A DNA stretch of 64,000 bases from Escherichia coli (lineage in GTDB: Bacteria > Pseudomonadota > Gammaproteobacteria > Enterobacterales > Enterobacteriaceae). Within the stretch, counting starts at the first letter, position 1. Each line of letters begins with the position of its first letter. Made by a program: the position numbers. Positions 3,001 through 8,207 of this stretch are shown piece by piece. Location: the NCBI RefSeq assembly GCF_041886205.1, contig NZ_CP169029.1; one strand, given 5' to 3'.

Positions 3001-6000
3001 CTTTATCGGTGGCAAAATGCCGACGCACTGGGGGCCACATGATGGCGATGCGGGGATCCGCAAAGATGCCGCTATGGTCGCGGATATGCGTGAAAAATGC
3101 GGTGAGGATTTCTGGTTAATGCTCGACTGCTGGATGAGTCAGGACGTGAACTATGCCACCAAACTGGCCCACGCTTGCGCGCCCTATAACCTGAAATGGA
3201 TCGAAGAGTGCCTGCCGCCACAGCAGTATGAAGGTTATCGCGAACTGAAACGCAACGCGCCAGCAGGGATGATGGTCACCAGCGGTGAGCACCACGGCAC
3301 ACTGCAATCTTTTCGTACGCTTTCAGAAACCGGTATCGACATCATGCAGCCGGATGTTGGCTGGTGCGGTGGCTTAACCACGCTGGTGGAAATTGCCGCA
3401 ATCGCCAAATCCAGGGGGCAACTGGTGGTGCCGCACGGTTCGTCTGTTTACTCCCACCATGCGGTGATCACCTTCACCAATACGCCATTCAGCGAATTCC
3501 TGATGACCAGTCCGAATTGTTCAACGATGCGTCCGCAGTTTGACCCGATTCTGCTCAATGAGCCGGTTCCGGTGAATGGTCGTATTCATAAATCAGTGCT
3601 TGATAAACCCGGTTTTGGCGTCGAACTCAATCGTGACTGCAATTTGAAACGCCCCTACAGCCACTAATCACTCCGGGCGTTGCTGTGACAACGGTAACGC
3701 CCACATATTCTAAGGAGCTTTTTATGAGCACCGCTTTGCTTGACGTCGTGGTGAAGAAAAACCGTGTGCGTTTAATTCCGTTTATGTTGGCGCTGTATGT
3801 GCTGGCGTTTCTCGACCGTTCGAATATCGGTTTTGCCAAACAGACCTACCAGATTGATACCGGGCTGAGTAATGAAGCTTATGCGCTGGGAGCAGGCATT
3901 TTCTTTGTGGTATATGCGTTTCTGGGTGTTCCGGCGAATCTTTTGATGCGAAAACTGGGGGCCAGAACCTGGATTGGTACGACAACACTGCTGTGGGGAT
4001 TTCTTTCGGCAGCCATGGCATGGGCCGATACTGAAGCGAAATTTCTGATCGTTCGCACTCTGCTTGGTGCTGCGGAGGCTGGGTTTTTCCCTGGTATGAT
4101 TTATCTCACCTCGCAATGGTTTCCGCAGCGTAATCGCGCCAGCATTATGGGGCTGTTCTATATGGGCGCACCGCTGGCGTTAACACTGGGATCACCGCTT
4201 TCCGGCGCGCTGCTGGAGATGCATGGATTTATGGGGCATCCCGGCTGGTTCTGGATGTTTGTGATTGAAGGATTGTTGGCAGTCGGTGCTGGGGTATTCA
4301 CATTCTTTTGGCTTGATGACACACCGGAGCAGGCACGTTTTCTGAGTAAACAAGAAAAAACGTTGCTTATCAATCAACTGGCAAGTGAAGAACAACAGAA
4401 AGTGACTTCTCGGCTGAGCGATGCGCTGCGTAATGGGCGAGTCTGGCAACTGGCGATTATCTACCTGACCATTCAGGTGGCGGTTTACGGATTAATTTTC
4501 TTCCTGCCGACCCAGGTTGCGGCATTGCTGGGGACAAAAGTGGGCTTTACAGCGTCGGTGGTCACCGCCATTCCGTGGGTTGCTGCCTTGTTTGGGACTT
4601 GGCTTATTCCGCGCTATTCCGATAAAACCGGCGAACGGCGTAATGTCGCAGCGCTGACATTACTGGCGGCGGGCATTGGTATTGGTCTGTCCGGGCTGCT
4701 TTCTCCAGTACTGGCGATCGTAGCGCTGTGTGTTGCAGCCATCGGGTTTATTGCCGTGCAGCCGGTGTTCTGGACGATGCCGACACAACTGCTTTCCGGT
4801 ACGGCGCTGGCTGCGGGGATTGGTTTTGTAAACCTGTTTGGTGCAGTGGGCGGGTTTATTGCCCCGATCCTGCGCGTGAAAGCAGAAACGTTATTTGCCA
4901 GCGATGCGGCGGGATTACTGACGCTGGCAGCGGTGGCGGTCATCGGTTCGCTGATTATTTTCACTCTGCGTGTAAATCGCACTGTTGCGCAGACCGACGT
5001 GGCACATCATTAAATAGGTTAAGGAACACGATGAACGCATTATTAAGCAATCCCTTTAAAGAACGTTTACGCAAGGGCGAAGTGCAAATTGGTCTGTGGT
5101 TAAGCTCAACGACTGCCTATATGGCAGAAATTGCCGCCACTTCCGGTTATGACTGGTTGCTGATTGATGGGGAACACGCGCCAAACACCATTCAGGATCT
5201 TTATCACCAACTACAGGCGGTAGCGCCCTATGCCAGCCAACCCGTGATCCGTCCGGTGGAAGGCAGTAAACCGCTGATTAAACAAGTCCTGGATATTGGC
5301 GCGCAAACTCTACTGATCCCGATGGTCGCTACTGCCGATCAGGCACGTCAGGTGGTGTCAGCCACGCGCTATCCTCCCTACGGTGAGCGTGGTGTTGGGG
5401 CCAGTGTGGCACGGGCTGCGCGCTGGGGACGCATTGAGAATTACATGGCGCAAGTCAACGATTCGCTTTGTCTGTTGGTGCAGGTGGAAAGTAAAACAGC
5501 ACTGGATAACCTGGACGAAATCCTCGACGTCGAAGGGATTGATGGCGTGTTTATTGGACCTGCGGATCTTTCTGCGTCGTTGGGCTACCCGGATAACGCC
5601 GGGCACCCGGAAGTGCAGCGAATTATTGAAACCAGTATTCGGCGGATCCGTGCTGCGGGTAAAGCGGCTGGTTTTCTGGCTGTGGCTCCTGATATGGCGC
5701 AGCAATGCCTGGCGTGGGGAGCGAACTTTGTCGCTGTTGGCGTTGACACGATGCTCTACAGCGATGCCCTGGATCAAAGACTGGCGATGTTTAAATCAGG
5801 CAAAAATGGGCCACGCATAAAAGGTAATTATTGATATCAAAGGCCCATGGGGATCGGCTGTGGGCCTGTGTTAATTAGTGGTTATTCGCTGCCAGATCGG
5901 CTTCGCTTAGCTGGGTGGCCGCGAGCACCAGGTCACGATCAATGCCTTGTTCCAGCATGCGCAAAGCAATTTTAATGGCTTGTTCACGCATACCTTCCTG

Positions 6001-8207
6001 CAAACCTTCTAATTTACCTTCCTGCCAGCCTTCAATCTTACCCTCCTGCCAGCCAATTTGATGTCCTTCCTGCCGTAGCCGTTCAGCAATAGTCATTAAT
6101 CTCTCCTTTTGTAGTGGTGAACGTTCGGCAATCTCCTGAATAAAACGGGTGAAACGGGAGGTATCGCCGCATTGCAGCAGATAATTAAACAGTGTTTGTA
6201 GCTGGCTGTCATTAGTGAAGCCTCTAACCAAAAGCGTGGTGATCCTGTCAACCATACCGATTAAATCGCGGTCGCGAATATGCTTTTGAATCAGTTCCAG
6301 CAGAGCTATACGCCGATGTTGCATGATCTCATCGTCAGGTACGATGGTGATATCCACCAACGGAAAAGCTTCGGTGTACAACTGCCGGGCAAGTTGCGGA
6401 TCGTCAAACTCATCCAGCCAGTTAAGTGAGTATGGGTAGGGCGAGGTTTCGCCATGATAAAACAGCAACGGCACCACCAGCGGGACTCTGTCATAGCCTT
6501 TGTCCAGGTGACGCTGCATGGCGGCAGTGGCATAGCGCATTAGCCGAAAAGCCATATTCTTTTCTGCAGAGCTTTGATGTTCAATCACGCAGTAGATATA
6601 ACCGTCACCGTCGCTGGTTTCCACGGACCACAAAACATCCGAGTAGTAAGCGCGTAAACTTTTTTCAATAAAACTGGTGGGTTCCAGGCGTAAGGTTTGC
6701 AGGTTGCAAAGCTTGCGCAGCGGCTCTGGTAGATGTATTTCGAGAAAATCCCGTGCGGTTTCGGGTGTGAACATAAAGGTTTTAAACACCGCATCATGCG
6801 GGGAGGAGGTTGTTGATTCGGTCATGGTTGTCCGTCACCTGATGTTTATGATGACGCGACATTACGGTTATCCCGGGCCTTTTACATCTGCCAGTTTCAG
6901 CCTTTGCGAGACGTTTTCAGAGGAATTTTCACTGCGTTGCAACGCATACATTGGGCATGGAATCGTGTACGCAAAAATGCCCGGTAACCACATGCTTACC
7001 GGGCATCAGAAGGGAGTTTAAGCCAGCGCCTGGGCCAGCAGCGTAATCGGATGTTCGCAGCGAAGACTTGTCGACATCTCAATCTGCCATTTACAGGTTT
7101 CGCAGTCGGTGACCACCAGATCCGCGCCGCTTTCTTCTATCTGGCGGAACAGTGGCGCACCGATGGCTTGTGAGGTGGGGTAGTTCTCTTTTTTGAAACC
7201 GTAAGTACCCGCAATACCGCAGCACTGGGAATCCAGCACCGTTAACTCAAGCCCCGGGATTTTACGCAACAGCTCCAGGGTGTAGAGCGTCCAGCCCATT
7301 TTTTCCATATGGCACGGAGTGTGATAAACCACTTTCAGCGGCAGCGGTTTCAGCGGTAACGTTTTGCCTTCGTCCAGCTTGCGCCACAGCCAGCGGGTTG
7401 CCAGTTCGATATGATCGCGCAAGCCTTTGTTGTCGACATTCAGCACTTCCGGGTATTCGTCGCGCAGGGCAAATGTACAGGTTGAGGAGGTGGCAATCAC
7501 CGGAATGCCTTTTACTCCCACAGCTTCGCGGATCGACTCTACATTCGTAATTGCCTGTTTGCGTGCTTTATCGGTAAAGCCGTTGGCGATTAGCGGTACG
7601 CCGCAGCATTTTTCTTTGCTGAGCAGTTGTACACCGGTACCCATTGCGTTGAGCACTTTAATTAAATCTTTACCTAACTGCGGATGGTTGTAGTTAACGA
7701 AGCAGCCGTGAAAGAAAGCGACCTGGTCTTTATATTGTGCTTGCTGAGCCGCTATGCTGCGATACCAGCGACGGAACGTGCCGAAGGAGTATTTCGGTAG
7801 CGTGCGGCGATGATCGATTTTTAACGCCGCATCAAGCAGCTGCCGCACCGGTTTCAGCGAGGTAGCGGTGTTGACGATTGGTGCGAACGGCGTGGAAACG
7901 CTACCCATCAGGTCGGTATGACTCAACACAAAATTACGCAGCGACGGGCGCGTGGTGTCATATTTTGCCCGCGCGCGCTGGATAATATCGCCAATCTTCA
8001 CATCGGACGGGCAGGCGACTTCACAACGTTTGCAGTTGATGCAATATTTCAGCGCCTCGTCATACAGTGCGCCATCTTTCAAACGCAGACGCTCGCCATC
8101 CGGCCCGGCTTGTTTTGGCCCTGGATAACCGGGATTCACCCGGCTCACCGGGCAGGCGGTGGTGCAGACGGTGCACTTAATGCAGTTTTCGAAGCTGGTG
8201 TCGTTCA

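Follow-up and report, generated by a model that had tools for sequence, protein, structure and literature searches.

Among the systems described so far, the closest to the locus considered here are the Rpn proteins of Escherichia coli, in which a full-length protein (RpnL) is inhibited by its cognate small protein (RpnS). Toxicity or DNA endonuclease activity of RpnL, and its neutralisation by RpnS, have been reported for RpnA, RpnB, RpnC and RpnP2 (Zhong et al. 2023, PMC10400941). In the case of RpnC, the interaction depends on short repeats, as RpnC_L was blocked only by RpnC_S of equal repeat number, and a single added unit altered RpnC function. The same study noted that the repeats start 8-20 residues past the initiating methionine, within helix 1, and that every RpnS and RpnSs protein of E. 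coli shows repeat variation. Its functional tests covered RpnA, RpnB, RpnC and RpnP2, not RpnE, and an anti-phage role was demonstrated for plasmid-borne RpnP2 only (Zhong et al. 2023, PMC10400941). The present analysis concerns the repeats of RpnE in a 64-kb stretch of E. coli DNA, referred to in full as the window, and finds them to be a genuine but already published feature (Zhong et al. 2023, PNAS, PMC10400941); a literature search found no papers on Rpn repeats later than 2023.

Identity of the gene and its nuclease domain

The order of genes around the repeats, glpA-glpB-glpC-rpn-yfaU-yfaV, is the same as in K-12, and since glpC and yfaU (rhmA) flank the gene it is RpnE (YfaD) and not RpnB, which is YfcI, a separate gene (Kingston 2017, PMC5350276). 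The first-pass annotation, made from the sequence alone, had named the protein RpnB/YfaD, of which the second half agrees with the glpC-rpn-yfaU synteny and with the PGAP name, whereas the first belongs to the paralogue; for annotation this is worth noting, as paralogue names in this family are easily mixed up. The match to PGAP's own 'rpnE' model, the equivalog NCBIfam NF007418, scores 718 bits (cutoff 583), and the gene at the yfaD locus is annotated rpnE in 5,000+ genomes. In RefSeq the product is labelled 'ISNCY family transposase', although the protein is not regarded as a transposase.

The protein had also been taken for a member of the Rpn/YhgA-like PD-(D/E)XK nucleases, and the domain search proposed as a check upheld the assignment, with matches to Pfam PF04754 (Table 1) and to TIGR01784 (175 bits, cutoff 52). 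Since residues 1-256 of the protein and of the RpnA model pair with no offset, residue numbers can be compared directly, and the residues needed in RpnA (D11, D63, E82, Q84 and R94, together with the PDDE residue D165; Kingston 2017, PMC5350276) are all retained in the window protein, as checked by position. Purifying selection acts on the nuclease domain (pN/pS = 0.064 for codons 1-250, among 12 alleles). The gene itself was found in 5,420 of 5,426 complete genomes, over at least 80% of its length in 5,409. A phmmer comparison of the full-length protein with PDB sequences gave no match at E<=0.01.

Position and composition of the repeats

Parsed as codons, the minus strand of 5992-6075 codes for seven contiguous x-x-x-Gly units, each of 12 nt or four amino acids with glycine last (Table 1). 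At the level of DNA, Tandem Repeats Finder assigned 87% matches and a score of 91 to the 24-nt periodicity at 5991-6054, the sole tandem array with a score of at least 50 across the 64-kb window, and the plus-strand motif TTCCTGCCAGCC recurs at 5995, 6019 and 6043 with 0-2 mismatches and a spacing of exactly 24 nt. The copies are imperfect, the 24-mers being about 79% identical and the longest near-exact repeat 10 nt. The tandem repeats that had been noticed at first pass are therefore real. The peptide noted at that time corresponds to residues 252-282 of the 316-aa ORF, or window 5980-6072 on the minus strand, and the coordinates then given, 5995-6085, overlap this interval with a shift of some 10-15 nt to higher window coordinates.

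Table 1. Features of the rpnE locus, with positions in the window
Feature	Position	Strand	Description and basis
Terminator-like hairpin	5841..5867	.	GC-rich; within the 40-nt gap separating convergent yfaU and rpnE
rpnE (yfaD) CDS	5875..6825	-	316 aa + stop; full-length RpnE_L, putative toxin/nuclease form; ORF, NF007418, synteny
Transposase_31 (YhgA-like) domain	6199..6804	-	Residues 8-209, PD-(D/E)XK core; Pfam PF04754, E=5.5e-88
Internal Shine-Dalgarno AAGGAG	6103..6108	-	Codons K240-E241, 6 nt 5' of internal ATG
rpnE_S	5875..6096	-	In-frame ORF, M244 (ATG 6096-6094) to shared stop, 73 aa; putative intragenic antitoxin
x-x-x-Gly array	5992..6075	-	Residues 251-278 of RpnE_L, 8-35 of RpnE_S
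Unit 1, RQEG	6075-6064	-	
Unit 2, HQIG	6063-6052	-	
Unit 3, WQEG	6051-6040	-	
Unit 4, KIEG	6039-6028	-	
Unit 5, WQEG	6027-6016	-	
Unit 6, KLEG	6015-6004	-	
Unit 7, LQEG	6003-5992	-	MREQ comes next
Strain-variable portion of array	5992..6051	-	Five units downstream of constant RQEG-HQIG; allele comparison
DNA-level tandem repeat	5991..6054	.	Period 24, 2.7 copies; Tandem Repeats Finder, repeat search, motif phase
Post-repeat C-terminal part	5884..6000	-	RpnE_S residues 33-71, end of helix 1 and two short helices; homologous to crystallised RpnA_S

The periodicity is not a matter of chance, since glycine holds every fourth position in 710 of 710 units parsed from 119 homologues. In all 119 the array begins at residue 8 after the internal methionine, with 2-9 units in each, and among homologues from E. 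coli, Citrobacter and Salmonella, whose DNA has diverged, Q predominates at position 2 of the unit and E, Q or K at position 3.

Internal start signals within rpnE

The internal start signals lie in a segment (gene nt 689-761) that is the same as the K-12 sequence, and among 43 orthologues M244-T-I-A is invariant and K240/E241 nearly so. Mutating the codons at these same positions in RpnA (K240, E241 and M244) removed RpnA_S, and in K-12 RpnE_S was seen by ribosome profiling and immunoblot, RpnE_L, RpnE_S and YpaA all being detectably expressed (Zhong et al. 2023, PMC10400941). From its start signals, RpnE_S would be expected to be produced in the window strain as well. No consensus sigma-70 promoter was found 5' of the internal start at the scan threshold, and inspection by hand gave weak candidates only, so that the sole evidence for an internal transcript is the published K-12 dRNA-seq. 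The 73-aa internal product carries no annotation, and the first-pass annotation passed over the fact that the repeats sit in a domain also made as the putative intragenic antitoxin RpnE_S, with variation published as a specificity determinant (PMC10400941).

Promotion of RecA-independent recombination, which had been attributed to Rpn proteins at first pass, was not found for RpnE, as K-12 RpnE was without activity in recombination, toxicity and SOS assays (Kingston 2017, PMC5350276). The construct used in that work, comprising the whole gene, probably co-expressed RpnE_S.

Variation among strains

The expectation that copy number would vary among strains proved correct, as the 23 E. coli loci compared carry 1, 2, 3, 4, 5, 6 or 9 variable units, with every intact allele in frame (23/23) and every observed length difference a multiple of 12 nt. 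The window allele has five variable units (seven x-x-x-G units in total) and K-12 has one. Many length classes coexist within E. coli, the classes having been taken from systematic samples of the 5,420 genomes and the unit counts from the 23 loci. Loci L001 and L006 differ at 5 nt in 750 nt, yet are 8 units apart, and slippage is a plausible cause of such changes in repeat number.

The window allele, which combines five variable units with the single-gene form and a ypaA-type tail, is rare, and its array region is matched at >=99% identity by just 9 of the 5,426 complete genomes. Neither ORFs nor synteny revealed a separate ypaA (rpnE_Ss) gene at the window locus; instead, the 3' end of rpnE itself is a ypaA-type segment, and its five-unit array is identical to that of the ypaA-type copy in L002, L007, L020, L021 and L024. 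Elsewhere, the rpnE copy of L012 is interrupted by IS2, and P0001 encodes a 361-aa fusion formed by stop-codon read-through. The S and Ss unit numbers are equal in none of the 19 two-gene loci, which show 11 distinct combinations; active upkeep of unequal counts is not statistically supported, as about 35% of random pairings of the observed counts, by our own estimate, would likewise show no equality.

Structure of the C-terminal domain

The tail of RpnE_S is related to a crystallised protein, as a phmmer search with the 73-aa tail by itself aligned query residues 33-71 to residues 9-47 of PDB 7TH0_A ('Recombination-promoting nuclease RpnA', 49 aa; E=5.4e-4). AlphaFold2 was applied to an S-S pseudo-dimer whose chains were joined by an artificial linker, with a shallow alignment (28 sequences), the helix-helix contact being a putative one, and returned helices at 3-49, 54-61 and 65-69 with pLDDT >90 and a pTM of 0.71; the array lies within one unbroken helix (3-49), at a pLDDT of 94-98. 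The full-length monomer gave a mean pLDDT of 60.5, with the repeats <50, which is what a partner-dependent helix would be expected to give; this model was too poor and was left out of the fold search. Searched against the PDB with Foldseek, the pseudo-dimer model matched nothing with E<6, and Pfam searched with the tail alone yielded no significant family, DUF4351 being absent and Yae1_N and RepB_primase_C sub-threshold. The top PDB matches of the tail, designed pentatricopeptide-repeat proteins, consisted of 10 stretches each scoring about 5 bits with individual E-values in the hundreds, and with per-stretch scores so low they were regarded as noise that adds up over a repeated helical motif and not as homology.

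Interpretation of the array

We consider it highly probable that the array consists of hypervariable 12-nt repeats of the RpnE C-terminal domain, belonging to a chromosomal gene-within-gene toxin-antitoxin system in which the pairing of S and L is coded by number. The full-length RpnE_L would be the PD-(D/E)XK nuclease-type protein, and the last 73 codons would be translated separately, from the internal Shine-Dalgarno sequence and ATG (M244), as RpnE_S. From residue 8 of RpnE_S the array would form part of a single long alpha-helix with glycine at each fourth position, and this helix is the predicted interface for pairing of C-terminal domains, both S:S and S:L. Gain or loss of 12- or 24-nt units would preserve the frame and change the length of the helix. 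Because both are read from the same DNA, L and S would change in step, and a new repeat number would therefore give a new self-matched toxin-antitoxin pair. Repeat number thus most likely governs helix length and, through it, the specificity of pairing. The present analysis shows the anatomy of the locus, the family to which it belongs, the signals for an internal start, the variation among strains and the prediction of a helix; that RpnE has antitoxin activity, specificity in pairing and a part in phage defence we infer from the experiments on RpnA, RpnB, RpnC and RpnP2.

A broader proposal, which we regard as possible but rather unlikely, is that rpnE and ypaA together form a two-cassette diversification device, in which crossovers between S and Ss give rise to new single-gene alleles and the array is a length code written in a glycine-stripe helix. 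Two diverged repeat-bearing segments in tandem would recombine repeatedly at differing crossover points, the products being fresh combinations of array and tail, hence new toxin-antitoxin specificities, of which the window allele would be an example. On this view the array would take the form of a soluble glycine-stripe helix, (xxxG)n, of the type represented by FliH and Yae1-Lto1, its length serving as the matching code. The main text of Zhong et al. 2023 (PMC10400941) sets out neither the cassette recombination nor the glycine-stripe idea explicitly.

Other explanations dispense with a pairing code. The array might be a rigid, length-adjustable 'ruler' between the nuclease domain and a C-terminal HTH-like bundle, altering target geometry, and in RpnE_L it does fall between Transposase_31 (8-209) and the terminal helices. 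Moreover, Zhong 2023 (PMC10400941) draws a likeness to EcoR124I/II and reports that RpnS resembles HTH motifs in HHpred, and the stand-alone copies bear the PGAP name 'Rpn/YhgA-type helix-turn-helix domain-containing protein'. However, the array is also present in the separately made RpnS, where there is no nuclease domain to space, S-L neutralisation was controlled by repeat number in the RpnC experiment (Zhong 2023, PMC10400941), and DNA binding by the tail is undocumented; as an account in its own right the ruler is improbable, although it is compatible with a pairing code and the two are not mutually exclusive. That the array is merely a neutral, slippage-prone stretch of low complexity, with copy number reflecting mutation pressure alone, would fit the short tandem units of 12 or 24 nt and the numerous length classes found side by side in E. 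coli. Such a stretch would hardly be expected to keep an invariant glycine at position 4, with Q and E/Q/K dominant at positions 2 and 3 despite DNA divergence, a constant start residue among homologues and an intact frame in 23 of 23 intact alleles; these features, together with a helix predicted by AlphaFold2 at very high confidence given a partner and the effect of one extra unit on RpnC function (Zhong 2023, PMC10400941), make neutrality very improbable.

We give still less credence to the view that RpnE is an inactive, decaying paralogue whose repeats vary because constraint has relaxed in the course of gene loss. The inactivity of K-12 RpnE in all assays (Kingston 2017, PMC5350276) and the damaged or rearranged alleles with IS2 (L012) and the 361-aa fusion (P0001) point in this direction, but against it stand the occurrence of the gene in 5,420 of the 5,426 complete genomes (5,409 with >=80% length), a nuclease-domain pN/pS of 0.064 with all six key residues kept, and the detectable expression of RpnE_L, RpnE_S and YpaA in K-12 (Zhong 2023, PMC10400941). 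A phase-variation switch, turned on and off by frameshifts at a simple-sequence repeat, is almost certainly wrong, because the 12-nt unit preserves the reading frame and alleles differ in frame by 12-nt multiples; beyond the existence of tandem repeats it finds no further support.

Returning to repeat number as a pairing code, the repeats represent one of a small number of documented examples in which toxin and antitoxin are read from identical codons. One in-frame gain or loss of a repeat would therefore alter both partners and could create a new private specificity, the pressure behind new specificities being presumably phages.

Comparison with known systems

Runs of x-x-x-Gly are known from other proteins. 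The GxxxG repeats of FliH/YscL are predicted to be helical, and their number differs from one homologue to another (m = 0-12 in FliH; Trost & Moore 2009, PMC2674601). In Yae1/Lto1, the Yae1-Lto1 complex cannot form without the deca-GX3 motif (Paul et al. 2015, PMC4523923). Both share with RpnE long x-x-x-Gly runs that are rich in Q, E and K and predicted to be helical, although repeat number differs between species in FliH and between strains in RpnE. The likeness is one of motif only and not of homology, as the scores are far under the family cutoffs: 18-27 bits against FliH models with cutoffs of 180-293 (E ~3e-6), and 18 bits against Pfam Yae1_N, with a cutoff of 27.5 (E=0.0023). Zhong 2023 (PMC10400941) refers to neither GxxxG nor FliH in its main text. 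That paper does itself offer the analogy with EcoR124I and EcoR124II, whose HsdS TAEL repeats are likewise in-frame four-residue helix repeats that alter specificity by their number (2 vs 3). The HsdS repeats space two DNA-recognition domains, whereas those of RpnE appear to set protein-protein pairing, and the families are unrelated.

Nearer at hand is ypaA (rpnE_Ss) of K-12, through which the small protein of RpnE has a second, stand-alone copy. The tail of the window protein is of the ypaA type, but the window holds this segment inside rpnE, without the separate gene. With the RpnS/RpnL repeats of Zhong et al. 2023 (PMC10400941), the array shares the family, the position in helix 1 eight residues after the internal methionine, the 12-nt unit and variation within the species, and there is no essential difference, the rarity of the window allele aside. 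The locus is best described as an ordinary, known defence-type locus with a rare allele rather than a new system.

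Repeat array and gene identity

The C-terminal tail of the Rpn protein encoded in the window does carry tandem repeats, as seen by codon parsing, by Tandem Repeats Finder and from the spacing of a plus-strand motif (see table), and Tandem Repeats Finder returned no other array with a score of at least 50 anywhere in the 64-kb window. The array consists of seven successive four-residue units, each terminated by glycine; the DNA copies are imperfect, the 24-mers being about 79% identical to each other. The span 5995-6085, at which the first-pass annotation had placed the repeats, overlaps the peptide at 5980-6072 but is offset by about 10-15 nt. 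The repeats are thus a real feature; both the phenomenon and the family to which they belong have been described before.

Coordinates of features at the rpnE locus
Feature	Window position	Strand	Residues	Details
rpnE open reading frame	5875-6825	minus		316 aa
Transposase_31 (YhgA-like), Pfam			8-209	E=5.5e-88
PADLOC PDLC01084 match	5938-6204		208-296	E=3.3e-5; profile positions 8-89/90
Shine-Dalgarno AAGGAG	6108-6103	minus	K240-E241	perfect; 6 nt before ATG
Internal ATG	6096-6094	minus	M244	
Seven four-residue units	6075-5992	minus	251-278	
Tandem Repeats Finder array	5991-6054			period 24; 2.7 copies; 87% matches; score 91
Repeated motif	5995, 6019, 6043	plus		exact 24-nt spacing
Region with the ypaA-type tail of rpnE and no ypaA	5835-5990			compared with L001 3001-4098
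Uninterrupted glpQ	13200-13400			

The proposed membership in the Rpn/YhgA-like family was borne out by the domain search, but the label ‘RpnB/YfaD’ conflated two paralogues. By the definition of Kingston et al. 2017 (PMC5350276), RpnB is YfcI and RpnE is YfaD, and the gene is rpnE: it is flanked by yfaV and yfaU (rhmA) and, at its opposite end, by glpC, glpB and glpA, as at the K-12 yfaD locus, it matches NF007418 of NCBIfam at the equivalog level (718 bits against a cutoff of 583), and it bears the RefSeq name rpnE in thousands of genomes. The NCBIfam RpnA model also aligned (1-256 to 1-256), with a score under its cutoff. The PGAP/RefSeq product name, taken from NF007418, is ‘ISNCY family transposase’; Zhong et al. 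2023 (PMC10400941) argue against Rpn proteins being transposases. Precomputed Pfam assignments place PF27070.1, possibly the Rpn C-terminal domain, beside PF04754 on every homologue (P0001-P0120), and the local Pfam search of the window protein did not return it. The matched PADLOC profile, ‘C3a178 putative invertase’, looks like an RpnS-like small protein among candidate defence components. The earlier statement that such proteins promote RecA-independent recombination is unsupported for this paralogue, as K-12 RpnE was the only one without that stimulus, and was also nontoxic and did not induce SOS (Kingston et al. 2017, PMC5350276).

An internal start and the putative small product RpnE_S

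The functional description of the gene also needs correction, and important context, a putative unannotated intragenic antitoxin, was overlooked. In the Rpn family the toxic full-length nuclease RpnL is neutralised by RpnS, the C-terminal domain made separately from an internal start; hypervariable four-residue repeats start 8-20 residues past the initiating Met, within a long first helix through which RpnA_S dimerises in its crystal structure, and in RpnC, RpnL is blocked only by RpnS of equal repeat number (Zhong et al. 2023, PMC10400941). The window sequence fits this description on every point. The stretch from the Shine-Dalgarno sequence to the internal ATG is that of K-12 with no differences, RpnE_S was detected in K-12, and mutating the same three codons (K240, E241, M244) abolished RpnA_S (Zhong et al. 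2023, PMC10400941). M244-T-I-A is unchanged across 43 orthologues, the x-x-x-G run begins at residue 8 of the 73-aa RpnE_S, and residues 33-71 of the latter are similar to 7TH0_A, the RpnA_S chain solved by crystallography (E=5.4e-4). In the PDB search with RpnE_S, designed pentatricopeptide-repeat proteins ranked above this true homologue because ten weak matches of about 5 bits each sum up, a caution for automated annotation of the RpnE tail. RpnE_S itself is without annotation, and copies of the ypaA type (the separate second copy of the small protein, rpnE_Ss) are labelled as pseudogenes truncated at the N-terminal end (‘hypothetical protein, missing N-terminus’).

Repeat number and locus structure among strains

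The suggestion that repeat number differs between strains held among 23 parsed E. coli loci, in which units were counted after the constant RQEG-HQIG and ranged from one to nine: one in K-12, three in GABEEC132 (L004) and 23CRST027 (L009), five in the window, and two, four, six and nine in other strains, with O157:H7 EDL933 placed in the three-unit length class by match span. All these alleles are in frame, and their differences are frequently clean 24-nt duplications; L011 has two copies of WQEG-KLEG where L018 has one, and the window array equals the three-unit allele plus WQEG-KIEG. Over 750 nucleotides upstream, the alleles of L001 and L006 show just 5 differences, yet they are eight units apart, which points to rapid change or recombination. 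The window's 171-nt array region was matched at ≥99% identity by only nine genomes, and the whole gene by only seven. The best match was the pig strain LHM10-1, with an identical gene and 8 SNPs over the first 13.3 kb; in that strain (L013 13281-14050) an IS1 lies within glpQ at window position 13281, where the window continues as unbroken glpQ without IS sequence and so derives from a close relative of LHM10-1, not from that assembly. In another locus (L012 901-1533) rpnE is cut off by an IS2 insertion after codon ~211.

In K-12-type loci rpnE ends ...GFEREIVLATTQLTDADIPNCH and is directly followed by ypaA, which has a separate Shine-Dalgarno copy, whereas the window lacks ypaA, its rpnE-yfaU gap is just 40 nt, and its rpnE has the ypaA-type tail. 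This single-gene form was found in 25 of a systematic sample of 60 from 5,420 genomes, mostly with one unit. Upstream, the window is nearest a two-gene strain (L009) and L004 is nearest L007; judged by this sequence, single-gene alleles are not a single lineage. The crossover point differs as well: L017 combines an rpnE-type six-unit array with a ypaA-type tail, and the window array is identical to both the rpnE array of L014 and the ypaA array of L002. The different two-gene neighbours and crossover points suggest repeated S/Ss recombination. Salmonella orthologues likewise end ...AANNH, so the single-gene layout with a ypaA-type tail may also be ancestral. Unit numbers of rpnE and the ypaA-type copy were equal in none of 19 two-gene loci (11 distinct combinations), a lead only, as chance pairing would be expected to do likewise in an estimated 35% or so of cases; if true, the antitoxin encoded by the second copy would be non-cognate. 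Like the IS2-interrupted copy, a 361-aa E. coli protein (P0001) represents a damaged or rearranged allele: it has Q at the rpnE stop and continues into the ypaA-type copy, so that a single chain carries two domains with repeats.

Role of the repeats

The window displays the anatomy of the repeat segment common to full-length RpnE_L and RpnE_S. By analogy with other paralogues, from which activity is extrapolated, repeat number most probably determines how long the interface helix is in both products and hence the specificity of their pairing; the two would co-vary automatically because one DNA segment encodes both. A ‘molecular ruler’ like the TAEL repeats of EcoR124I/II is possible and compatible with this pairing role. 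Neutral slippage would leave the array without function, but the motif is kept across genera: across 119 E. coli, Citrobacter and Salmonella homologues the run invariably begins at residue 8 from the Met and comprises 2-9 units, protein lengths differ in four-residue steps, and unit position 4 is Gly without exception, position 2 mainly Q, position 3 mainly E, Q or K, and position 1 mostly L, H, R, I or V. Purifying selection speaks against gene decay; with rpnE found in 5,420 of 5,426 complete E. coli genomes, a pN/pS of 0.064 (codons 1-250, 12 alleles), and D11, D63, E82, Q84, R94 and D165, which were probed in RpnA (Kingston et al. 2017, PMC5350276), all kept in the window, the gene is not decaying. 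Phase variation is ruled out by the 12-nt unit. Units may be gained or lost by slippage, by recombination involving the ypaA copy, or by the action of RpnL.

Comparison with known structures and motifs

In the AlphaFold2 model of the full-length monomer, which was poor (mean pLDDT 60.5), the repeats are helical with pLDDT <50. An artificial S-(GGS)10-S pseudo-dimer reached a mean pLDDT of 82.6 and pTM of 0.71, with pLDDT 94-98 over the array; each copy has a single helix at residues 3-49 and two short ones after it, the same three-helix layout as RpnA_S, and the long helices of the two copies would touch each other. Foldseek of this model against the PDB gave no useful match. The array is an (xxxG)n glycine repeat with sub-threshold matches at residues 251-278 to FliH models (E ~3e-6) and to Pfam Yae1_N (E=0.002), a likeness absent from the main text of Zhong et al. 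2023 (PMC10400941). The GxxxG repeats of FliH/YscL are rich in Q, E and K, predicted to be helical and variable in number (PMC2674601), and formation of the Yae1-Lto1 complex needs the deca-GX3 motifs of both partners (PMC4523923). Both are families known for long helical repeats of this kind that serve in dimerisation. The likeness is an analogy at the level of the motif, not homology, and as such supports helix-helix pairing.
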